A DNA stretch of 64,000 bases from Candidatus Eiseniibacteriota bacterium. GTDB lineage: Bacteria; Eisenbacteria; RBG-16-71-46. Under the pieces are notes generated by a model. It saw only the letters and a program-made list of their open reading frames with translations, searched no databases and had not been told where the DNA came from. How positions within the stretch are numbered: position 1 is the stretch's first letter; each line of letters opens with the position of its first letter. The stretch spans positions 5,536 through 69,535 of the forward strand of contig JBGQIE010000001.1 of assembly GCA_041498315.1 (NCBI GenBank), in the 5' to 3' direction. Shown piece after piece: positions 1 to 38,442 of the stretch. Made by a program: the position numbers and the translations under genes.

Positions 1-1768
1 CGCGATCCGTGAGTTGAGGGATGGGCTGCCGGGGATGATGACGCTCATCTCGCTGGCGATCGCAGTCGCGTTCCTCTTCAGCGCGGCGGTGACCCTCGGC
101 TTCCCGGGCATGCCGCTCTGGGAGGAGCTCGCCACGCTCGTCACGATCATGCTCCTGGGGCACTGGATCGAGATGCGCTCGATCTCACAGGCCCAGGGCG
201 CGCTGCGGGAGCTCGCCAAGCTGCTCCCGAACGTGGCGACGCGCGTCGTCGTCGACCGCACCGAGGAGGTCCCGGTCTCGGAGCTCCGGGAGCGTGACAC
301 GGTGCTGGTTCGCCCGGGCGCCGCCGTGCCCGCCGACGGACTGGTGCGCCGGGGAACCAGCGCCGTCAACGAGTCGATGGTCACGGGTGAGTCGCGCCCG
401 GTCGAGAAGCGCGCGGGGGACAAGGTCATTGCCGGAACCGTGAACGGATCCGGTTCGCTCCATGTCGAGGTCACCGGTACCGGCCAGCAGACGATGCTTG
501 CATCCATCATGCGGCTCGTGGAGCAAGCGCAGACGTCGCGCTCGCGCGCCCAGGCGCTCGCCGATCGGGCGGCGTTCATCCTCACCCTGGTCGCGATCGG
601 AGCCGGGGCGGCCACACTCCTGGCCTGGCTCGGCATTCGCAGGGGCGACCCCGCGTTCGCCGTCGAGCGGCTCGTCACGGTGCTCGTCATCGCCTGTCCC
701 CACGCCCTCGGGCTCGCGATCCCTCTCGTCATCGCGATCTCGACGACGCTCGGCGCACGCAGCGGGCTCCTCGTCCGCGACCGGCGGGGCCTGGAGGAGG
801 CGCGAAAGGTGACCGCGGTGGTGTTCGACAAGACGGGCACGCTGACCCTCGGCGAGCAGCGCGTGGTGAGCATGGCGACCGAGCCGGGCATGACACCGGA
901 CATGGCGCTGCAGCTCGCGGCCGCCGTCGAGCGCGACTCCGAGCACGCCGTGGCGCGCGCGCTCCTGGCCAGCGCGGCGGACCGCCGTCTGGCGGTTCCG
1001 CCCTCCTCGGCGTTCGAGGTCCTCCCCGGTCGCGGCGTGCGCGCGGTGGTGGATGGACGCCACCTGGCGACCGGCGGTCCAAATCTCCTGGCGGAGCTGG
1101 CCGTCACGCCGGGCGCCGCGATGAGCTCCGCCGCCGAGCAGGCCGCGACGCTCGGGCAGGGCGCGATCTACCTGGTCGAGGACGGACGCGTGCTGGCCGT
1201 ATTCGCCGTCGCGGACGCGATCCGGCCGGAGTCCGCCGAGGCCGTCCGCCGCCTGCACGCGGAGGGGATCGAGGTGGTGATGCTCACCGGCGACTCGCGG
1301 GCGGTCGCCGATGCGGTGGCGAGCCAGCTCGGGATCGACACCGTGTTCGCGCAGGTGCTCCCCGAGCAGAAGGTGGACAAGATCAAGGAGCTTCAGGCGC
1401 AGGGGAAGCGCGTGGCGATGGTCGGCGATGGCGTCAATGATGCCCCCGCGCTCGTGACGGCGGATGTCGGGGTGGCGATCGGCGCCGGCACCGACGTTGC
1501 GGTGGAGGCGGGCGATATCGTGCTGGTGCGCAACGACCCGCGGGATGTCCCGCGGATCATCGCGCTGTCCCGCGCGAGCTATCGGAAGATGATCCAGAAC
1601 CTGTGGTGGGCGGCGGGTTACAACATCGTCGCCATCCCGCTCGCCGCCGGGGTCCTCTCGCCATGGGGCGTCGTGCTCTCCCCCGCTGTCGGAGCGGTGC
1701 TGATGTCGGCGAGCACCGTCATCGTTGCGGTCAACGCCCAGCTTCTTCGGCGGACCAAGCTGACCTGA
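1..1768 (+). CDS. heavy-metal translocating P1B-type ATPase, C-terminal part (5' end lies outside the window); CPH motif suggests a CopB-like copper subgroup
   Basis: The ORF runs off the window start. Motifs CPHALGL (TM6), DKTGTLT, GDGVNDAPAL and VAIGAG are all present in the translation. Confidence 0.9.
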   Translation, partial: AIRELRDGLPGMMTLISLAIAVAFLFSAAVTLGFPGMPLWEELATLVTIMLLGHWIEMRSISQAQGALRELAKLLPNVATRVVVDRTEEVPVSELRERDTVLVRPGAAVPADGLVRRGTSAVNESMVTGESRPVEKRAGDKVIAGTVNGSGSLHVEVTGTGQQTMLASIMRLVEQAQTSRSRAQALADRAAFILTLVAIGAGAATLLAWLGIRRGDPAFAVERLVTVLVIACPHALGLAIPLVIAISTTLGARSGLLVRDRRGLEEARKVTAVVFDKTGTLTLGEQRVVSMATEPGMTPDMALQLAAAVERDSEHAVARALLASAADRRLAVPPSSAFEVLPGRGVRAVVDGRHLATGGPNLLAELAVTPGAAMSSAAEQAATLGQGAIYLVEDGRVLAVFAVADAIRPESAEAVRRLHAEGIEVVMLTGDSRAVADAVASQLGIDTVFAQVLPEQKVDKIKELQAQGKRVAMVGDGVNDAPALVTADVGVAIGAGTDVAVEAGDIVLVRNDPRDVPRIIALSRASYRKMIQNLWWAAGYNIVAIPLAAGVLSPWGVVLSPAVGAVLMSASTVIVAVNAQLLRRTKLT

Positions 1769-2117: not shown

Positions 2118-2765
2118 ATGGGAAACGAGAGCGCTGCTGTCGGCGACGAGATCCCGCCGGGATGCGAGATCATCGAGGTGCGGGTCGCCGAACTACGGCA
2201 GCTATTCAACGCGATCGACCCCTCCCCCTTTTATGATCGCGACCTGGACCCGAATGCCGAGGAGTTCATCACGAATTGGGCCAGCGGAGTTCCGGCGTCC
2301 ACGTCCCTCGGCCTGCGGGTCCACATCGATCGCCCGGCAGGCGCGGCGGGTGATGCCGACATGCTGCGCGACGCGGTGCAGCAGCATTTCCGCCGGAAGA
2401 GCGCCGCGTCCCTGCGCCGGCTTCGAGCGCTGTTCGAGCGCGGTCGCACCAGTCTGGTCATCGGACTCGCATTCCTCGGCGGCTCGAGCTGGGTCGCGAG
2501 TGCTCTCAAGGGCGTGACGGGCGGCGGTTTCGGCGACCTCCTGCGTCAAAGCCTGATCATTGGAGGCTGGGTCGCCATGTGGCGGCCCATGGAGGTGTTC
2601 CTCTACGACTGGTGGCCGATCCGCGCCGAGGCGAGGCGGTACGACCGCCTGGCGTTGATGCCGGTCCGGATTCAGTACGCGCCCGAGGGGACGCCGCCAG
2701 GCGGCCGGCGCGAAGGGCCGGCGATATCGGCCGGCGCGCCACCGGCGCGCCACGGAACCACGTGA
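2118..2765 (+). CDS. hypothetical protein (215 aa, C-terminal hydrophobic segment); its stop overlaps the GTG start of the downstream P2-ATPase (GTGA)
   Basis: First ATG in frame 0 after the GNAT stop. No recognisable domain. Stop TGA is at 2763-2765 and the next gene starts GTG at 2762. Confidence 0.5.
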   Translation: MGNESAAVGDEIPPGCEIIEVRVAELRQLFNAIDPSPFYDRDLDPNAEEFITNWASGVPASTSLGLRVHIDRPAGAAGDADMLRDAVQQHFRRKSAASLRRLRALFERGRTSLVIGLAFLGGSSWVASALKGVTGGGFGDLLRQSLIIGGWVAMWRPMEVFLYDWWPIRAEARRYDRLALMPVRIQYAPEGTPPGGRREGPAISAGAPPARHGTT

Positions 2766-5554
2766 AGGATACCTACCAGCTCGAGGTGAGCGAGGTCGTC
2801 GCCGCGCTCGGAACCGACCCCGTTCGCGGGCTGGGTGATCGCGACGCGCGGGCGCGCCTCGAGCAGCACGGCCGCAACGAGCTGACGGCGGAGAGGCCGG
2901 TTCCGGCCTGGCGGCGATTTCTCGCCCAGTTCGAGGACGTCCTCGTCATCCTGCTCCTGGTCGCGACCGCGATCTCGGCAGGCCTCTGGATCGTCGAGCG
3001 CGACGCCGCGCTCCCCTACGAGGCCATCGCCATCTTTGCCGTCGTCCTCCTCAACGCGACCATGGGCTACGTCCAGGAGTCGCGGGCCGAGGCGGCGGTC
3101 GCAGCCCTGCGGGCCATGACGGCAGACGACGCCGAGGTCATCCGCGACGGCGAGCGCAGGCGCATCCCGGCCGTCGATCTCGTGCCCGGCGACCTCGTGC
3201 TGATCGAGGAGGGCGACACGGTGCCCGCCGATGCGCGCCTGGTCGAATCGACGGCGCTCCATACGGCCGAGGCGGCCCTGACCGGCGAGAGCGTGCCGGT
3301 CTCGAAAGACACCGCGCCGATTTCCGACCCGGCCGAGCTGGGTGACCAGCACAATATGGTGTTCAGCGGAACGGCCGCGACCTACGGGCGCGGCAGAGCG
3401 ATCGTGACGGCGACGGGCATGGGCACGGAGATGGGGCGCATCGCCGGGATGCTCAAGGGGACACGCGACGAAGCGACGCCGCTCCAGCGCGAGCTCGATC
3501 GCACGGGCAAGGTCCTCGGCCTGGTCGTCGCCGCCATCGCGGTCGTGATGATCGCGGCGATCGTCCTGGTCCAGGACGTGCGCGGCTTCGCGGCGTTCGT
3601 CGACACGCTGATCCTGGGCGTGGCGCTCGCCGTGGCCGCGGTGCCGGAGGGGCTGCCGGCGGTGGTGACCGCCGTGCTGTCGATCGGGGTGCAGCGCATG
3701 GCACGGCGCAACGCCATCGTGCGGCACCTCGCGGCGGTCGAGACGCTCGGCTCGGCCAGCGTGATCGCCTCCGACAAGACCGGAACCCTCACGAAGAACG
3801 AAATGACCGTGCGGGCGGTGGTCACCGCGAGCGGGCGCGTGACCTTCGGCGGGTCCGGGTATGCACCCGAAGGGGACGTGCAGCGCGCGGGAGGCGGACC
3901 CGTCGAGGGGGCCATGCGCGTGGAGCTCGAACGCGCCCTGGCGGTCGCCGATCGCGCGAACAACGCTGCCCTTCAGGAAGTCGACGGGCGATGGATCGTG
4001 CAAGGCGACCCGACCGAGGGGGCGCTACTGGTCGCGGCGCGCAAGGCCGGACTCAGCGCCGAGGACCTCGATGCCCGATTCACACGGCTGGGCGAGGTGC
4101 CGTTCTCCTCCGAACGAAAGCTGATGAGCACGATTCACAGCGACGCCCATGAGGAGCGCCTGATCGTCTTCACCAAGGGCGCGCCCGACATCCTGATCAC
4201 GCGCTGCTCGTACGAGATGGTCGGCGGGGCGCGGCGTCCACTGACACCCGAGCGGCGCGCCGAGATTCTGCTCTCGAACGAATCCCTCGCCGACGAAGCG
4301 CTCCGCACGCTCGGGGTTGCGGCGCTGTGGCTGCCCTACGACGCGGTCTCCCCGGACGACGCCGCTGCCGTGGATGCGCGCCTGGAGCAGGACCTGGTCT
4401 TCGCGGGGCTGATTGGGATGATCGACCCCCCGCGTCCCGAAGCGGCGGAAGCAGTGGCCCGGGCGCGCGGCGCCGGAATCCGCCCGCTGATGATCACGGG
4501 TGACCACCCGCGGACCGCCGCCGTGATCGCGCGCGAGCTGGGCATCGCCACGGACGGACGCGCCCTCACGGGCGCCGAGATCGAAAAGCTCACAGACGAC
4601 GCGCTCGCGCGCGCGGTCGTGGACATCTCGGTCTACGCGCGCGTCAATCCCGAGCACAAGCTGCGCATCGTTCACGCGCTCCAGAAGGGTGGGGCCATCG
4701 TCGCCATGACCGGCGACGGGGTCAACGACGCGCCGGCGCTCAAGACCGCGGACATCGGCGTGGCGATGGGGATTACGGGCACGGACGTTTCGAAGGAAGC
4801 GGCCGACATCGTGCTCGCCGACGACAACTTCGCCTCGATCGTCGCCGCGGTCGAGGAGGGGCGGGCGATCTTCGCCAACATCCGGAAGTTCCTGCGCTTC
4901 CTCCTGTCGTCGAACATCGGCGAGGTGCTGACGATGTTCTTCGGCGTGCTCCTGGGGGGACGGCTCGGCCTGCCTGCGGCGGGTGAGGGCATCGCGCTCC
5001 CGCTGCTCGCGACGCAGCTGCTCTGGATCAACCTGGTGACCGATGGGGCCCCCGCGCTGGCGCTGGGCGTGGACCCGCCGGAGGAGGGCCTCATGCATCA
5101 GCCGCCGCGCCCGCCCGGGGAAGGCGTGATCACCGGCGGCATGTGGCGCGGCATCTTCTTCGTGGGGCTGGTCATGGCCGCGGGCACCCTGTTCATGATC
5201 GACGCCGCATTGCCCGGGGGCTTCGTCGAGGGCACCGGCAATCTGCGCTACGCGCAGACCATGGCTTTCACGACGCTCATGCTGTTCCAGCTCTTCAACA
5301 CCGTCAACGCGCGATCGGGCGAGCGGAGCGCGTTCGTGGGCTTGTTCACGAACCGCTGGCTCTGGGGGGCGCTCGGAATGTCGATCGTGCTGCAGGTGAT
5401 CGTGCTCTACGTACCGGCCCTGCAGCGGGGGTTCGGAACCGTTGGGCTGGGCGCGGCGGACTGGCTGCGCTGCGTCGCGGTGGCGAGCTCGGTGCTATGG
5501 CTCACCGAGGCGGGCAAGCTCGTGAGGCGAGGGCGCGCACGAACCCGCGCATGA
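2762..5554 (+). CDS. cation-transporting P-type ATPase, P2 type (Ca2+/Mg2+ family)
   Basis: Motifs DKTGTLT, PEGLP, TGDHPRTA and GDGVNDAPALKTADIGVAMGITGTDV. The N-terminus matches the Ca-ATPase cation_ATPase_N pattern. GTG start is inferred. Confidence 0.9.
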   Translation: MKDTYQLEVSEVVAALGTDPVRGLGDRDARARLEQHGRNELTAERPVPAWRRFLAQFEDVLVILLLVATAISAGLWIVERDAALPYEAIAIFAVVLLNATMGYVQESRAEAAVAALRAMTADDAEVIRDGERRRIPAVDLVPGDLVLIEEGDTVPADARLVESTALHTAEAALTGESVPVSKDTAPISDPAELGDQHNMVFSGTAATYGRGRAIVTATGMGTEMGRIAGMLKGTRDEATPLQRELDRTGKVLGLVVAAIAVVMIAAIVLVQDVRGFAAFVDTLILGVALAVAAVPEGLPAVVTAVLSIGVQRMARRNAIVRHLAAVETLGSASVIASDKTGTLTKNEMTVRAVVTASGRVTFGGSGYAPEGDVQRAGGGPVEGAMRVELERALAVADRANNAALQEVDGRWIVQGDPTEGALLVAARKAGLSAEDLDARFTRLGEVPFSSERKLMSTIHSDAHEERLIVFTKGAPDILITRCSYEMVGGARRPLTPERRAEILLSNESLADEALRTLGVAALWLPYDAVSPDDAAAVDARLEQDLVFAGLIGMIDPPRPEAAEAVARARGAGIRPLMITGDHPRTAAVIARELGIATDGRALTGAEIEKLTDDALARAVVDISVYARVNPEHKLRIVHALQKGGAIVAMTGDGVNDAPALKTADIGVAMGITGTDVSKEAADIVLADDNFASIVAAVEEGRAIFANIRKFLRFLLSSNIGEVLTMFFGVLLGGRLGLPAAGEGIALPLLATQLLWINLVTDGAPALALGVDPPEEGLMHQPPRPPGEGVITGGMWRGIFFVGLVMAAGTLFMIDAALPGGFVEGTGNLRYAQTMAFTTLMLFQLFNTVNARSGERSAFVGLFTNRWLWGALGMSIVLQVIVLYVPALQRGFGTVGLGAADWLRCVAVASSVLWLTEAGKLVRRGRARTRA

Positions 5555-5630
5555 GCGCGGTCGCCGCACGGCCTCGACGACAGCGGGGACCAACAGGCCG
5601 CCGATGACGACCTTGGTGCCCTGGCGCCCC

Positions 5631-6218
5631 CTACCCTTTGCTCTTCGCCCAGATCGACGCCTTCTTGGCCCAGCTGGTGTCGGTGTACCGATCCGCGAAC
5701 GCCCTGGCGGTTTCGGCGAGCGCCGCACCATCGTTGCTGCCCTTGTAGCGCGCCACTCCCGCCCAGTACAGGGCCTCGGGACCCGCTTCGCCGTCCGGGT
5801 AGCGTTCCATCACGTCGCGGAACAGGCGCTCGGCTTCCTTCCAGTCCTGGCGCTTGAAGGCGGCGTGGGCGAGCCCGAGCGAGAGCTGCGCGAGGAAATC
5901 CTCGACGGGCAGGTAGCCTTCGATGCGGTGTCGCTCGGTGCCATCGGGGTCGAGCTCGAGGATGGTCGGCGTCCATTGGGCGCCGTAGCGTTCCCCGAAG
6001 CGTTTGAAGTCGGCCGCCTGCTCGCGCACGTGAAGACGCGCGGGGATGAAGTGTTCGGTGATGAAGCGCGCGACGCGTTCGTCCGGGTAGACCTCGGCAT
6101 CCAGCCGAGCGCATCCCCCTCACATCGGCGCGGCGCTGAAATCGAGCAACACCCGGCGCTGCTGTGTCCTGGCCTCCTCGAGTACGCGGTCTACGTCGTG
6201 TCTCCACGCGATCTTCAT
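5631..6218 (-). CDS. thioredoxin-fold protein with in-frame UGA (codon 33) at the first CxxC cysteine position; candidate selenoprotein (U-G-G-C motif), 195 aa if UGA is read as Sec
   Basis: An ATG at 6216-6218 has a GGAGGAG Shine-Dalgarno 4 nt upstream. The frame runs MKIAWRHDVDRVLEEARTQQRRVLLDFSAAPM-[TGA 6120-6122]-GGCARLDAEVYP... and continues in the same frame into the 132-aa ORF 5631..6029. DFSAxxxUGGC aligns with the thioredoxin DFxAxWCGPC motif. A hairpin starts 11 nt 3' of the UGA. Confidence 0.6.
6093..6109 (-). other. candidate bacterial SECIS hairpin (CUCGGC-UGGAU-GCCGAG) beginning 11 nt downstream of the in-frame UGA
   Basis: A 6-bp perfect stem with a 5-nt G-containing loop on the mRNA strand. 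The spacing to the UGA matches the E. coli fdhF-type SECIS geometry. Confidence 0.4.
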
Positions 6219-6373
6219 TTCTCCTCCTTCAGGCTCTTCGGGCCCGGGCCCGGTCAGCGGCGTCCGATGGCCAGTCTACACCCTGGATCGCGAGTCGATC
6301 GCAGGGCCCGCCGGGAGCCTGATCCACCCTGGTTCCGCTAGCCGCTCGTGGAGGGGTGTGAGAGAGTCCGCGC

Positions 6374-7042
6374 ATGTCCAGCCCGGAAATCACGTCGGCT
6401 GCCCATCCACCGCTGCGCGTCCTGATCTTCTCCGCCTCGCTGCGCGGCGAATCGCTCAACACCGGGCTCGCCCGCCTCGCCGCGCGGCACCTGCAGGCCT
6501 CGGGCGCCACCGTCGACCTGGCGTCGATGCGCGAGTTCGACGTCCCCTCCTACGACGGGGACGCCGAGGCGCGCAACGGGATCGCGGCCGGGGCGCGCGA
6601 GCTGACGCGACGCCTGGCCGCGAACGACGCGTTCGTGATCGCCTCCCCCGAGTACAACGCCTCGATGCCGGGGTTGCTCAAGAACCTGATCGACTGGACC
6701 TCGCGGTCGCGTCCGCAGCCCTTCCACGAGCGTCACGGGCTCCTGCTCTCGGCCTCGCCCTCCCTGGTGGGGGGCAACCGCGGCCTGTGGGCGTTGCGCG
6801 TGCCGCTCGAGCATCTGGGGGCGCGGATCTTCCCCGACATGTTCTCGCTCGCGATGGCCCACAAGGCGTTTGCGGGCGAGCAACTCGCGGATGCCACGCT
6901 CCAGGAGCGATTCGAGAAGAACCTGGAGGCGTTTCGCGCGCTGGCCGAGGCGGCGAAACATTATCCCTGCATCAAGAAGGCCTGGGTCGAGTTCCTGGGC
7001 GAGCCCCCGGGCCTGCCCACCGACCGGGTCGAGGCCACGTAG
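6374..7042 (+). CDS. NAD(P)H-dependent FMN reductase family oxidoreductase
   Basis: LRVLIFSASLRGESLNTGLA followed by the SPEYNASMPGLLKNLIDW signature of the NADPH-dependent FMN reductase (SsuE/ArsH-like) fold. Confidence 0.75.
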   Translation: MSSPEITSAAHPPLRVLIFSASLRGESLNTGLARLAARHLQASGATVDLASMREFDVPSYDGDAEARNGIAAGARELTRRLAANDAFVIASPEYNASMPGLLKNLIDWTSRSRPQPFHERHGLLLSASPSLVGGNRGLWALRVPLEHLGARIFPDMFSLAMAHKAFAGEQLADATLQERFEKNLEAFRALAEAAKHYPCIKKAWVEFLGEPPGLPTDRVEAT

Positions 7043-11376: not shown

Positions 11377-12138
11377 TTACAGCAGCTCCTGAAGCCGCGC
11401 GTAGCCCGCGCGGCTCACCGGAAGCTGCTTGCCGTCCTTGAGGATCGCGACCCGGCTGTCCTTGGCGTACAGCTCGAGGCGCGCCAGGCACTCCACGTTG
11501 AGCACCCACGAGCGGTGGATGCGCACGAAGCGCGCGGGGTCGAGCCCGGCGGCGATTTCGGACAGGGTCTGATTCTTGAGGAAGGTCTTGCCGCCGGAGC
11601 GGATCGCCGCGTAGTCGTCCTGGGCCTCGATCCATTCCAGGCGCCCGACCGGGATGACGTGCACCTGGGTCCCTTCCTTGACGAGCAGGCGCTCGACGAA
11701 CTGCCCGGGCGGGCGGGCGGCCGCGGCCAGCGCCGCGGGCGAGGGCGCGACGGGCGTGCCGCCGGCGGCGAGCCGGGCGCGCACCTGGGCGAGCGCCTCG
11801 GCGAGCCGCTCGCGGCCGACCGGCTTGAGGACGTAGTCGGCGGCGTGCACCTCGAAGGCCTTGAGGGCGTATTCGTCGTAGGCGGTCACGAACACCACGG
11901 CGGGGCGGCGCTCGATGAGGTCGAGCACCTCGAAGCCGTCGAGCTTGGGCATCTGGACGTCGAGCAGCACCAGGTCGGGCTCGAGCTCGCCGATCGTCTT
12001 GACGGCCTCGAATCCGTTCGCGCACTCCGCCACCACCTCGACATTCGCGTCCGCGGACAGATACTCGCGCAGCAGCGCGCGGGCCGGGGCTTCGTCGTCC
12101 ACGATCAGCGCGCGGATGACCTTGGTGTCAACCGGCAT
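11377..12138 (-). CDS. LytTR family two-component response regulator
   Basis: REC domain (LIVDDE, LDVQMPKLDG) plus a C-terminal LytTR DNA-binding domain (FVRIHRSWVLNV). The start overlaps the upstream kinase stop by 11 nt. Confidence 0.9.
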   Translation of the reverse strand: MPVDTKVIRALIVDDEAPARALLREYLSADANVEVVAECANGFEAVKTIGELEPDLVLLDVQMPKLDGFEVLDLIERRPAVVFVTAYDEYALKAFEVHAADYVLKPVGRERLAEALAQVRARLAAGGTPVAPSPAALAAAARPPGQFVERLLVKEGTQVHVIPVGRLEWIEAQDDYAAIRSGGKTFLKNQTLSEIAAGLDPARFVRIHRSWVLNVECLARLELYAKDSRVAILKDGKQLPVSRAGYARLQELL

Positions 12139-13273
12139 CGTGTTCCCCCTCGCCCGCCGGCACGGCGGCGTCGTGGCGGGCCGCCGCGGCCTCCGGAGCC
12201 GCGCGCACCCCGCCCTCCTCCTCGACCGCGGGCACCCGGAGCAGGACGCGGAATCGATCGGGCGTGCGCACCACATCGAGGCCGGCGCCGCGCGGATCGA
12301 GCGCGCGCAGCCGCTGGCGCACGTTCTCGAGGCCGAGACCGTGTCCGCGGCGCGGCGGCGCGGCGGGATCGCGCGGGTTCTCGACCTCGATCTCGAGCGC
12401 GCCGCCGCGCCGGCGCGCCGCGATGCGCACCGTGCCGCCCTCGACGCGATCGGCCACGCCATGCTTGACCGCGTTCTCGATCAGGGGCTGGATGAGGAGC
12501 GGCGGCACCAGGCAGCGCTGGGCGCCCGGCTCGACCTGCCGGTCGACCGCGAGCCGTGCGCCGAAGCGCACCTGCTCGATCGCGAGGTAGCGCTCGGCGA
12601 GCGCCAGCTCCTCGGCGAACGCGACGCGCTCGCGGGCGCCCAGGGAAAGGCTCAGGCGCAGGAAATCGCCCAGGAGCTGGCACATGCGCCGCGCGGCCTC
12701 GGGGTCGGAGCCGGTGAGCGCGCTGATCGAGTTGAGGCTGTTGAACAGGAAGTGCGGGTTGAGCTGGGCGCGCAGCGCCCGCAGCTCGGCCTCGCGCGCG
12801 TTGACCTGCGAGGCCATGACGCGGCGCTCGGCGTCGCGCGCCGATTCGAACGCGAGCAGGAAGTAATGGGCGACGATGGACTGTGCGTAGAGCACGACCC
12901 CGGCCGTGAACACCACCGCGAGATCGCGCAGCAGGCCCGGCCGGTCGGGCCCGATGTGGAGCCGGGCCGACAGGAGCGCCGCCCATAGCGCCGCCAGGCC
13001 GGCCCACACCGCCCCCGCCTGGAGCGCCGCCCCCAGGGTGGCGTTCGCGAGGCGCAGCGGCGGGGTGGTCGCGAGCGGATTCGCGCGGCACACCCACCAG
13101 GCCGACAGGCAGATCGAGGCGAACACGAGCGTCAGGGGCGCCGCGAAGGCGACGGCGTGACCGACCGGCCGCGGCTGGAACAGCACCATGATGGTCACGA
13201 GCAGCGCGCCGATGCCGAGCCAGAGCACCAGGTAGAGGACCGGGCGCATCCGACCCTGGAGCAGCGGGTGCAT
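12128..13273 (-). CDS. sensor histidine kinase, LytS/YehU type (His_kinase PF06580)
   Basis: N-terminal multi-TM region. H-box LNPHFLFNSLNSI and a HATPase_c domain. Confidence 0.9.
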   Translation of the reverse strand: MHPLLQGRMRPVLYLVLWLGIGALLVTIMVLFQPRPVGHAVAFAAPLTLVFASICLSAWWVCRANPLATTPPLRLANATLGAALQAGAVWAGLAALWAALLSARLHIGPDRPGLLRDLAVVFTAGVVLYAQSIVAHYFLLAFESARDAERRVMASQVNAREAELRALRAQLNPHFLFNSLNSISALTGSDPEAARRMCQLLGDFLRLSLSLGARERVAFAEELALAERYLAIEQVRFGARLAVDRQVEPGAQRCLVPPLLIQPLIENAVKHGVADRVEGGTVRIAARRRGGALEIEVENPRDPAAPPRRGHGLGLENVRQRLRALDPRGAGLDVVRTPDRFRVLLRVPAVEEEGGVRAAPEAAAARHDAAVPAGEGEHDAG

Positions 13274-14035
13274 CTAGTTCTTGACCTCGACGCCGCCCAT
13301 CACGACCAGGCCCCGCAGCACCAGCACCCCGCGTGCCTCACCGATCGGCGCCCGTGTTTCGTCCACGACCGCCCCCATGATGGGCTGGGCCTCGACCGAG
13401 ACCCGCCAGTCCTCGGGCACGCGCAGCTCCACGCCGCCCCACCACACGAACAGGTCGAGGACCGCCTGCCCCTCGGCCATGCGTGCCGGGCGCAGGTCGA
13501 TCTCGTGGCCGCCCATGATCGCCGTGATGTCGCCGCCGCGGAAGTCCTGGGCGACCACCTTGCGCTGGACTCCCGACAGCAGGGCGAGCGCGTTGAGGCT
13601 CGGCGAGGCATCGTCGCCTCCGCGCGATGAGCGCGCGCGCTGGAGCGTGCCGGTGACCATCGAGGCGCCGAGCAGGATCAGGACCAGCGGCCAGAGATCG
13701 AGGATGCCGAGCCGCACGAGGTGAAACGTGTGGAGCAGCATCCAGGAGCCGAGGATCGTGAACAGGACGCCGCTCGCCAGGTGGACGCGGCAGTTCCAGC
13801 CGGTGATGCGCGCCACCCCGTAGACGACCAGGAGCGCGGGCCACCAGCGCAGGATGTCGCCGGCCCGCGCGATCCCGAGGTTATCGAGCATGAACAGCAC
13901 GCCCAGGGCGATGACGAGCAACCCGAACGTGAGGCGGCTGGGACCGTACACGCCGGGACCGTGGAGCCGGCCGTCGCCGCCCACCATGAAGCCCACCACC
14001 ATGCGCTTGGGCTTGGGGACGTCGGTCTCAGGCAT
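13274..14035 (-). CDS. LiaF-like membrane protein (N-terminal TM helices + C-terminal DUF2154/LiaF_C beta domain)
   Basis: TM helices followed by LNALALLSGVQRKVVAQDFRGGDITAIMGGHEIDLR...VWWGGVELRVPEDWRVSVE, which is typical of the cell-wall-active antibiotic response protein domain. The stop codon immediately abuts the kinase start. Confidence 0.7.
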   Translation of the reverse strand: MPETDVPKPKRMVVGFMVGGDGRLHGPGVYGPSRLTFGLLVIALGVLFMLDNLGIARAGDILRWWPALLVVYGVARITGWNCRVHLASGVLFTILGSWMLLHTFHLVRLGILDLWPLVLILLGASMVTGTLQRARSSRGGDDASPSLNALALLSGVQRKVVAQDFRGGDITAIMGGHEIDLRPARMAEGQAVLDLFVWWGGVELRVPEDWRVSVEAQPIMGAVVDETRAPIGEARGVLVLRGLVVMGGVEVKN

Positions 14036-14321
14036 GGCCCACCCTCCTTTCCATCGGCTGCGGCTCGTGGATCGCCGCGGCCAGCACGGCGACGACGATC
14101 ACGATCGCGGAGCCGACGACCAGCGCCGGGCCACGGGTGAACGCGTGCGCGCCGACCCGCAGGAGCGCGCGCGCCGCCGCCAGGATGGCCGGCGAGTGCG
14201 CCACGAATGCGTGGGCGAGCCACGCCAGGTTCACGGCCGCGAGCCAGCACAGCGAGGTCGCCAGCACCGCGACCGCCACCATCCACGCTGTCCGCTCGTG
14301 GTGTGTCACCAACTCGGTCAT
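14028..14321 (-). CDS. small membrane protein (2-3 TM), operon member
   Basis: 97 aa and hydrophobic. It overlaps the LiaF-like gene start by 8 nt. Confidence 0.5.
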   Translation of the reverse strand: MTELVTHHERTAWMVAVAVLATSLCWLAAVNLAWLAHAFVAHSPAILAAARALLRVGAHAFTRGPALVVGSAIVIVVAVLAAAIHEPQPMERRVGHA

Positions 14322-14322
14322 G

Positions 14323-14682
14323 TTACTCCTCCCTCTTCCAGGGCCAGCGGCGCCGGTCTTCGCCGGTCAGGGCGCGGATCACGATTCCGGTGCCCACTGC
14401 GATCAGCGCCAGGGGCCAGGAGCTACTGAACGTCATGTCGTTCCAGTGAGTGGTGCAGGCCAGCAGCCAGGTGCCGATCAGCACCCCGGATACGCCCGCG
14501 CCCACCCGGCCATCGATGAATCGACCCGCGGCGATGACGAAAAAGATCACGGGCCACAGCGTCTCGAACGGCGGCAGGTGCAGGATGTGCAGCCGGTCGA
14601 TGAGGAACGCGGTCCCGAGCAGCATGAGGAACAGACCCCACAGGACCGACTTCGTGCTGGGTGTGCGGATTTCGGTTTCCAT
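14323..14682 (-). CDS. DUF5668/LiaI-LiaF-TM-like small membrane protein
   Basis: VLWGLFLMLLGTAFLIDRL...WPVIFFVIAAGRFI pattern. It sits 1 nt from the downstream gene start. Start is chosen at the internal Met. Confidence 0.55.
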   Translation of the reverse strand: METEIRTPSTKSVLWGLFLMLLGTAFLIDRLHILHLPPFETLWPVIFFVIAAGRFIDGRVGAGVSGVLIGTWLLACTTHWNDMTFSSSWPLALIAVGTGIVIRALTGEDRRRWPWKREE

Positions 14683-14707
14683 CGTGCTCCTCCTTTGGGC
14701 CGGGGTG

Positions 14708-14830
14708 TATCCGGCCTGCTCGCGAGTCAATCTACGGCGGGCGCGGTGCGGGGAGCGCGGGGTTTTCGGCGAATGGCGGTGGAAACCCGGTGAATGGCGC
14801 CAGGGCCGGGCCCGATGGCTATCCGGCCTG
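14708..14830. repeat. 11-nt direct repeat TATCCGGCCTG (14708-14718 and 14820-14830) flanking the promoter region of the LiaF-like/LytS/LytTR operon
   Basis: Two exact 11-mers 112 nt apart in a 162-nt intergenic region. Confidence 0.4.
14771..14800. promoter_or_regulatory. 9-12-9 direct repeat GAATGGCGG-N12-GAATGGCGC with LytTR-binding-site geometry
   Basis: Two 9-mers (8 of 9 identical) separated by exactly 12 nt. They lie 90-118 nt upstream of the first gene of the LytTR operon. Confidence 0.4.
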
Positions 14831-14844
14831 TTGCCGCCCGGGGC

Positions 14845-31546: not shown

Positions 31547-31623
<77 letters not shown>

Positions 31624-34774: not shown

Positions 34775-34851
34775 TGGTCGGGGCGACTGGATTTGAACCA
34801 GCGACCACCTGCCCCCCATGCAGGTGCGCTACCGGGCTGCGCTACGCCCCG
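34775..34851 (-). tRNA. tRNA-Pro (anticodon GGG)
   Basis: 77 nt, with the same acceptor and D-arm as the CGG isoacceptor, anticodon loop AUGGGGG, and encoded CCA. Confidence 0.9.
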
Positions 34852-38366: not shown

Positions 38367-38442
38367 TGGAGCGGGCAACGGGGTTCGAACCCGCGACCTC
38401 AAGCTTGGGAAGCTCGCGCTCTACCAACTGAGCTATGCCCGC
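38367..38442 (-). tRNA. tRNA-Gly (anticodon CCC)
   Basis: 76 nt: GCGGGCATAGCTCAGTTGGTAGAGC D-arm, anticodon loop UUCCCAA, T-arm GGTTCGAACCC, and encoded CCA. Confidence 0.9.

Follow-up and report, generated by a model that had tools for sequence, protein, structure and literature searches.

The question raised by this locus is whether an in-frame TGA codon, found where thioredoxin-like proteins carry the first redox cysteine, ends a gene or is read as selenocysteine (Sec). The codon lies on the minus strand of a 64,000-nucleotide stretch of the Candidatus Eiseniibacteriota bacterium assembly GCA_041498315.1 (contig JBGQIE010000001.1, positions 5,536 to 69,535), the whole of which is called here the window. 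An earlier note on this DNA had proposed a selenoprotein gene at this place. Our analysis supports this proposal: positions 6218 to 5631 of the minus strand very probably form one functional gene, which would encode a cytoplasmic selenoprotein of 195 residues with Sec at UGA-33, inserted by means of a bacterial selenocysteine insertion sequence (SECIS).

Re-reading of the sequence placed the open reading frame (ORF), the Shine-Dalgarno sequence, the ATG, the TGA and the stop exactly where the earlier note had put them (Table 1). The first 32 codons translate as MKIAWRHDVDRVLEEARTQQRRVLLDFSAAPM; the TGA comes next and is followed by 162 sense codons up to the TAG, the TGA at codon 33 being the sole interruption of the 195-residue frame. 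A mechanical ORF listing of the gene region returned only the 132-residue ORF 5631..6029, opened by a GTG, which is exactly the mis-annotation that the earlier note had predicted. A genome-wide reassignment of UGA (genetic codes 4 or 25) was considered and ruled out, as genes in the window use TGA as an ordinary stop more often than TAG or TAA: the 24 window genes supported by Pfam end with TGA in 12 cases, TAG in nine and TAA in three. Codon 33 of the gene under study is the only internal in-frame TGA among these 24 genes and, together with the common use of TGA as a stop, this indicates that recoding is site-specific. No further credible in-frame TGA with coding signal on both sides was found in the window, using a crude filter which also missed the target itself.

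Conservation of the TGA was analyzed among relatives of the protein. A protein search found 2683 relatives at E ≤ 1e-5, and lengths were compared in the best 120. The great majority (113 of these 120) are N-terminally short, with 132-169 residues covering about 67-79% of the query, and among them are proteins that NCBI calls "thioredoxin fold domain-containing protein" or "tetratricopeptide repeat protein". Such shortening is the signature of gene callers halting at a common in-frame stop. In a scan of one genome per species, which gave 80 loci (L001-L080, two of them cut by a contig end), tblastn matches begin, with few exceptions, at residue 1 or 2 and reach beyond residue 190. The column aligned with codon 33 (the U column) shows TGA in all 80 species-level loci, within the context LLDFSAAPM-TGA-[GSA]GCARLD, and the cysteine at residue 36 is invariant in the same 80 sequences. 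Starting from a 54%-identical member (P0050), a metagenome scan added 10 complete relatives, with identities down to about 44% to P0050, and every one of them has TGA at the U column. Neither TAA nor TAG occurs at the U column.

Approximately 64 of the 80 loci are labelled Gemmatimonadota. The remaining ones carry the labels Myxococcales/Deltaproteobacteria, Vicinamibacterales/Acidobacteriota, Thermoanaerobaculia, Terriglobales, Thermodesulfobacteriota and Eisenbacteria, and one is labelled "Bifidobacteriaceae", which is surely a mis-binned contig. The gene is found with a near-identical SECIS under many phylum labels (e.g., L074, L011, L025 and L080). This spread over phylum labels indicates horizontal transfer of the gene together with its SECIS, mis-binned contigs, or both.

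Seven of the best 120 homologues are full-length in the databases: at the U column, four show Trp, one Cys, one Arg and one Ser. The Trp forms are P0001, P0007, P0008 and P0050, and the DNA was read at this column for P0008 (L086:323-916) and P0050 (L087:445-1029). In both the codon is TGA, on contigs of about 1 kb whose genes were called by JGI under genetic code 4. These homologues were therefore rejected as evidence for Trp at the U column; translations under code 4 disguise selenoproteins as "Trp forms" in protein databases. The Cys form is a close orthologue (P0002, locus L083) with TGT. The Arg form (L084:10001-10594, on a 979-kb contig) has CGA, and the Ser form (L085:1001-1615) has TCA. 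The three variants are each one substitution away from TGA, and all three keep the hairpin described below. The CGA and TCA relatives, which are single cases, can be read either as assembly errors or as genes whose Sec codon was inactivated or replaced very recently.

More distant relatives were collected by a HMMER search with P0002 of 1.84 billion cluster representatives, which gave 775 matches at E ≤ 1e-10. From these, 54 full-length representatives were aligned (about 17-50% identity, most of them of about 190 residues and with the same architecture), and 48 carry a C-x-G-C motif whose first Cys falls on the U column. At the DNA level, TGT or TGC was found at this column in P0002, P0122, P0126 and P0127. 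Furthermore, in the alignment with the thioredoxin-like structure PDB 2kuc, the first Cys of its WCGPC motif falls on U33 and the second on C36. The earlier note had placed the UGA at the first redox Cys, and the structure, the homologues and the TGT of P0002/L083 all agree with it. In these alignments U33 matches the nucleophilic Cys of the CxxC redox motif, which is the classical Sec/Cys criterion. A relative from Burkholderia shows WCPSC at the motif: it is a secreted protein of 595 residues (L088:2677-4464, on the B. multivorans replicon NZ_CP143551.1, about 1.98 Mb) in which a thioredoxin domain with this motif is followed by a long helical domain, and the PLSDB gene table lists no feature at these positions. 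In addition, the gene of the Cys-form P0127 (L105:501-1094, plus strand) adjoins a convergent gene encoding a CMD/AhpD-like protein (L105:1091-1507, minus strand), a possible redox partner seen in a single observation.

The thioredoxin fold that the earlier note had read at this locus was recovered with the U-to-C translation, which matches the Pfam families Thioredoxin_2 (PF13098; E = 4.9e-15, score 56.2) and Thioredoxin_7 (E = 1.1e-9, score 38.7), both above the gathering cut-off of 27. The C-terminal 80 residues match TPR_6 and TPR_16, and the C-terminal half aligns to the tetratricopeptide repeat (TPR) domain of YbgF (PDB 2xev, 2e-8). NCBIfam gave sub-threshold, domain-level matches only (the DsbD-like end of TsoB, DsbD, the VPGUxxT thioredoxin-like selenoproteins and YbgF). 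A W-T-P-T loop is invariant in the homologue alignments, and its Pro aligns with the YPT of 2kuc. The tertiary structure was modelled on the natural Cys-form orthologue P0002 (66% identical) instead of the UGA form. The AlphaFold2 (AF2) model, with a pLDDT of 89 and a pTM of 0.86, shows a thioredoxin fold followed by five helices. According to Foldseek, the N-terminal domain of this model resembles the Thioredox_DsbH/DUF255-type structure 7tkv, the Thermus thioredoxin 2lst, DsbD-gamma and DsbH, with a probability of 1.00 to thioredoxin, DsbD-gamma and DsbH; the C-terminal domain resembles YbgF (2xev) and BamD, with a root-mean-square deviation of 1.4-2.0 Å over 80-86 columns. The fold begins at residue 3, therefore no signal peptide is predicted. 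Alignment and model together assign the protein to the thioredoxin fold, with C(U)xxC predicted at the start of helix 1 and a cis-Pro-type loop; the geometry of U33 and C36 at the motif loop is a prediction, as the confidence of the model is low there.

The hairpin CUCGGC-UGGAU-GCCGAG reported by the earlier note is present 3' of the UGA, although its spacing had been given as 11 nt: UGA and stem are separated by 10 nt (GGGGGAUGCG), the stem starts at the 11th nucleotide and the loop begins 16 nt past the UGA. The published bacterial SECIS consensus asks for an apical loop of 3-9 nt with a G at one of its first two positions, an upper stem of 4-16 bp, a distance of 16-37 nt between the UGA and the loop, and a minimum free energy of -7.5 kcal/mol or lower (PMC13188914). 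The hairpin agrees with all four criteria of that source, as it shows a 5-nt UGGAU loop, a 6-bp stem, G at loop positions 2-3, a spacing of 16 nt, which is the lower limit of the consensus range, and -10.0 kcal/mol.

The hairpin overlaps the codons of the peptide A37-R-L-D-A-E42, whose codon usage is almost frozen: CGG, CTG, GCC and GAG are each found in 80 of 80 species, GCT in 75 of 80 and GAT in 76 of 78. GCT and GAT are non-preferred codons in this GC-rich DNA, yet they are kept in the hairpin, and outside it synonymous sites are close to saturated across the 80 species. When the 74 conserved degenerate columns are ranked by normalized synonymous entropy, the six hairpin codons take the six lowest places (Mann-Whitney U = 0, p = 2.8e-5). 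Their third-position diversity is 0.036 vs. about 0.52 elsewhere in the gene. Some changes are compensated. In L087, L089 and L090, CGG changes to CAG (Arg to Gln) coupled with GCC to GCT, by which a G-C stem pair becomes A-U; stem pair 20-30 is GC in 83 of 86 sequences, AU in three and broken in none. Variants from GAT to GAG or GAA gain a U.G or U-A closing pair, and the GGA loop remains. Below the upper stem, an extended lower stem is paired in 91.5% of alignment cells, compared with 31-45% when the partners are slid, and its pair 12-39 is CG in 40 sequences and AU in nine. With the consensus features, the frozen codons and the compensatory G-C to A-U change, the SECIS-like character that had been claimed for the hairpin holds.

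Cys-form relatives allow this constraint to be linked to the TGA. The peptide that follows CxGC is variable in distant Cys forms, whereas ARLDAE is 99% conserved in TGA forms, a conservation that is therefore best explained at the RNA level. P0126 encodes the same ARLDAE peptide through GCA...CTT, with one pair broken and a UUGAU loop, and in P0127 the hairpin is gone. P0002 and P0122 keep the hairpin, as expected for recent Sec-to-Cys conversions. Within the 1.03 Mb examined, the hairpin core after a TGA was found in this gene family only. Taken together, the alignments show that all relatives with the UGA conserve the hairpin as RNA, under a constraint tied to the TGA.

Several observations weigh against decoding of UGA-33 as Sec. 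No tRNA-Sec was found in the 64-kb window (ARAGORN and Rfam) nor in 50 homologous loci (ARAGORN), and tblastn with the E. coli SelA, SelB, SelD and FdhF found no selA, selB or selD either in the window or in the flanks of homologous loci (about 1 Mb). The absence of sel genes is uninformative because these genes are unlinked and less than 2% of each genome is visible. Full-text literature searches found no report of Sec use in Gemmatimonadota. Taken as a single sequence, the hairpin does not fold with significant energy (z = -1.2 to -1.55, with 17-25 of 200 shuffles folding equally well); such energy is ordinary in DNA with the 72% G+C of the window, so the lone sequence shows that the features exist, not that they matter. 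In the copy of the window itself, five of the eight lower-stem pairs form. Covariation is limited, the upper stem being nearly invariant, and exceeds shuffle controls marginally; with so little variation in the stem, classical covariation statistics are weak. A search of the gene region against Rfam, run with a permissive E-value, found no matching family and one spurious lncRNA match. The active-site loop of the P0002 model is of low confidence, and both the role of the TPR domain and the natural substrate are conjecture on our part. Finally, no gene neighbourhood is conserved across the 80 homologous loci, the second-largest cluster being an antisense shadow ORF. Matches to SelB-like GTPase domains were also obtained, which NCBIfam identifies as TypA and LepA. 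The window contains genes for tRNA-Pro(CGG), tRNA-Pro(GGG) and tRNA-Gly(CCC), at 31547-31623, 34775-34851 and 38367-38442 of the minus strand, respectively. In favour of Sec, its decoding has been documented in Acidobacteria and Anaeromyxobacter, two of the lineages labelled in our loci (PMC1794560; PMC12013277).

The lack of visible Sec machinery in the window and homologous flanks and the silence of the literature on Gemmatimonadota, as well as the rare relatives that keep the hairpin with CGA, TCA or TGT at the column, are also what would be expected if UGA-33 were read through without a Sec system. This would take place by hairpin-stimulated near-cognate or suppressor decoding (Trp, Cys, Arg or Gly), or by another recoding factor, and would give a thioredoxin-like protein with one Cys or with CxxC. 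We consider it unlikely. The hairpin shows every consensus feature of a SECIS and, to our knowledge, SelB with SECIS is the only bacterial mechanism that couples a UGA to a G-loop hairpin about 16 nt downstream. The position is that of the catalytic Cys of CxxC, the canonical place of Sec, and Trp, Arg or Gly at residue 33 would destroy the redox site. If Cys were the residue inserted, TGY would suffice, as in 48 of the 54 relatives, and there would be no reason to keep a TGA and a frozen hairpin in about 90 lineages.

Translation on both sides of the UGA was analyzed by the mean pairwise nucleotide diversity at codon positions 1, 2 and 3 across the aligned loci. Diversity is 0.233, 0.224 and 0.535 in codons 2-32, before the UGA; 0.186, 0.144 and 0.508 in codons 43-64, between the UGA and the usual annotated start; and 0.243, 0.217 and 0.518 in codons 65-190. 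The matching pattern before and after the UGA indicates that the 32 upstream codons are protein-coding under the same selection, which excludes the readings of a pseudogene and of a stop followed by re-initiation. By this measure, the comparison shows a single ORF translated across UGA-33. Gene callers, including that of NCBI, annotate 113 of the best 120 homologues as though translation ended at UGA-33 and a separate protein of about 132-150 residues were initiated downstream, with the upstream 32 codons as leader or untranslated sequence, and here the GTG at 6029 could open such a product. It is very improbable that they are right: diversity in the 31 upstream codons has the three-base periodicity seen elsewhere in the gene, and coding selection also acts on the codons that separate the TGA from the annotated start; the strong Shine-Dalgarno sequence and the ATG sit at the upstream start, which is conserved (ATG in 75 and GTG in five of the 80 loci at the aligned position); the short product would begin in the middle of the thioredoxin fold, without strand 1, helix 1 and the active site; and annotated starts vary among homologues (132-169 residues), as for arbitrary calls. 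A pseudogene, or a Cys (TGY) or Trp (TGG) codon misread in sequencing or assembly, is scarcely credible, for although one base change gives TGT, TGC or TGG and one close orthologue has TGT, the same TGA is kept in about 90 independent sequences (the 80 genomes and 10 metagenome contigs) from different projects and assemblers, with purifying selection on both sides and neither frameshifts nor other stops, in agreement with the earlier note, which had argued against a pseudogene or frameshift.

With Sec as the preferred reading of UGA-33, a mechanism may be proposed. SelB-GTP-Sec-tRNA(Sec) would bind the apical stem-loop as the ribosome reaches UGA-33, and Sec would be inserted at the A site in competition with release factor 2. 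Recruitment of this complex by an apical stem-loop is the established mode of Sec insertion in bacteria. In the product, U33 and C36 would lie where helix 1 begins, beside the W-T-P-T (cis-Pro) loop, and form a selenenylsulfide/selenol-thiol couple, and the protein would act as a thiol-disulfide oxidoreductase. The CpoB/YbgF-like TPR domain might recruit a specific client or partner protein.

Thioredoxin-fold UxxC selenoproteins with a downstream intragenic SECIS are a well-known kind. The present gene shares with the "thiol:disulfide interchange protein" family and with Sec-containing thioredoxin (PF00085) the thioredoxin fold, Sec in place of the first Cys of CxxC and a SECIS in the coding sequence after the UGA. 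The former family (PF13098, UxxC; Kryukov & Gladyshev 2004; PMC13188914 Table 1; PMC1794560) was described in Syntrophus and in two species of Geobacter, all three of them anaerobes of the Deltaproteobacteria (PMC1794560). Here too the best Pfam match is PF13098 and the motif is UxxC (UGGC); however, the thioredoxin domain is fused to a CpoB/YbgF-like TPR domain in a protein of about 195 residues, which lacks a signal peptide and is found mainly in metagenome-assembled genomes of soil Gemmatimonadota. The gene may be a divergent branch of that family (reference WP_011366075.1, Geobacter metallireducens). The table of the 2026 catalogue of prokaryotic selenoproteins (PMC13188914) lists neither a TPR-fused thioredoxin family nor these taxa.

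As in the SECIS of E. coli fdhF and fdnG and in the bSECISearch consensus (PMC13188914 Fig. 2A), the hairpin lies within the ORF and directly 3' of the UGA. It shows no sequence similarity to the E. coli elements, and its bulge is a G on the 3' side. In the fdhF SECIS, the bulge is a U on the 5' side. The closest relatives of the N-terminal domain are the gamma domain of DsbD, DsbH, Thioredox_DsbH/DUF255 and Thioredoxin_7, which have a CxxC-type site at the same position; these proteins, however, use Cys and are periplasmic or membrane-tethered, and P0002 scores far below the NCBIfam cut-offs (31.5 vs. 330 for DsbD and 19.3 vs. 190 for DsbH). A weak similarity was also found to the VPGUxxT (NF041383/NF041382) and Trx7/PDZ (NF041199) families, which are Thioredoxin_7-like selenoproteins of environmental bacteria (E = 7e-6, 1e-3 and 3e-3). 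The protein reaches 25.8, 18.1 and 16.4 bits with these models, whose cut-offs stand at 275, 350 and 300. It also departs from them in its motif, which reads APM-U-GG-C instead of VPGUxxT or CxxU, and in its C-terminal domain. The score for TsoB (NF045694) is 45.1 against a cut-off of 805, and no NCBIfam selenoprotein model comes near its cut-off for the UGA-form protein or its Cys-form relatives. The closest known counterparts of the C-terminal region of about 85 residues, which aligns to the TPR domain of YbgF (2e-8), are CpoB/YbgF (PDB 2xev and 6g5s) and BamD. CpoB and BamD belong to the Tol-Pal and BAM systems and reside in the periplasm or outer membrane, whereas the TPR domain of the present protein is fused to a cytoplasmic thioredoxin domain; with a score of 34.1 against the CpoB/YbgF (TIGR02795) cut-off of 90.1 and no signal peptide, the protein is similar in the TPR domain alone.

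The features of the gene are collected in Table 1. Two tandem P-type cation ATPase genes (window positions 14-1768 and 2579-5554, plus strand) are convergent with it, and an NADPH-dependent FMN reductase gene (6374-7042, plus strand) is divergent from it. This context is not common to the 80 homologous loci and thus gives no functional clue. An ORF of 245 residues runs antisense to the gene (5604-6341, plus strand), and similar antisense ORFs cluster in 27 loci; it is the usual shadow-ORF effect of high-GC coding DNA and not a gene. A promoter and terminator scan of 5300-6500 gave nothing useful. Further away, at 11377-14844 (minus strand), genes for a LiaF-like protein, a histidine kinase (His_kinase), a LytTR response regulator and a second LiaF-TM protein are clustered and make up a cell-envelope stress module of an ordinary type.

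Table 1. Features of the candidate selenoprotein gene, in window coordinates.
Feature	Position	Strand	Basis
Shine-Dalgarno sequence GGAGGAG, followed by AA and the ATG	6221..6227	-	Read from sequence
Full predicted selenoprotein coding sequence, 195 residues (ATG 6218-6216, TGA at codon 33, TAG 5633-5631)	5631..6218	-	Translation and tblastn
In-frame UGA, inferred Sec codon, residue 33	6120..6122	-	Conserved TGA column, Cys alignment
Putative redox motif U33-G34-G35-C36 (UxxC), counterpart of thioredoxin CxxC	6111..6122	-	Alignment to 2kuc WCGPC and Cys-form homologues
Thioredoxin-fold domain, residues ~1-105, no signal peptide	5904..6218	-	Pfam, AF2 of Cys orthologue, Foldseek
Invariant loop W82-T83-P84-T85, counterpart of the thioredoxin cis-Pro loop	5964..5975	-	Alignments; cis conformation inferred
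C-terminal all-helical TPR-like domain, residues ~106-192, CpoB/YbgF/BamD-like	5643..5903	-	Pfam TPR_6 and TPR_16, 2xev, AF2, Foldseek
Putative SECIS upper stem-loop, CUCGGC (6109-6104) / UGGAU (6103-6099) / GCCGAG (6098-6093), 6 bp and 5-nt loop	6093..6109	-	Folding, synonymous entropy, pair conservation
Putative extended SECIS, lower stem 6117-6110 with 6091-6084, G6092 bulged, 5/8 lower pairs in the window copy	6084..6117	-	Pairing in alignment, moderate support
132-residue GTG ORF reported by ordinary gene callers, a mis-annotation product and not a separate gene	5631..6029	-	ORF listing

The gene does not reveal a new mechanism and is not mechanistically surprising. We consider there to be about an even chance that these proteins form an uncatalogued family, made up of a cytoplasmic thioredoxin domain with UGGC and a CpoB-like TPR domain, which is widespread among the Gemmatimonadota of soils and occurs as well in loci labelled Myxococcota or Acidobacteriota, and that it gives the first evidence that Gemmatimonadota decode UGA as Sec; in that case, the near-identical SECIS across phylum labels would imply a cassette-like horizontal spread or an unusually strict recognition by SelB. 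The SECIS constrains the ARLDAE peptide as well as the choice of its codons, and offers an exceptionally clean natural example for training and testing predictors of bacterial SECIS. Many database entries of these proteins are N-terminally short and lack the active site, and others show a Trp there, so that functional or structural inference from them is wrong; a dedicated family model would correct the annotation in a major soil phylum. If the Sec reading is true, the prokaryotic selenoproteome gains a thioredoxin-fold selenoprotein with an unusual fused TPR domain, and a dependence on selenium would be indicated in Gemmatimonadota, which are aerobic soil bacteria.

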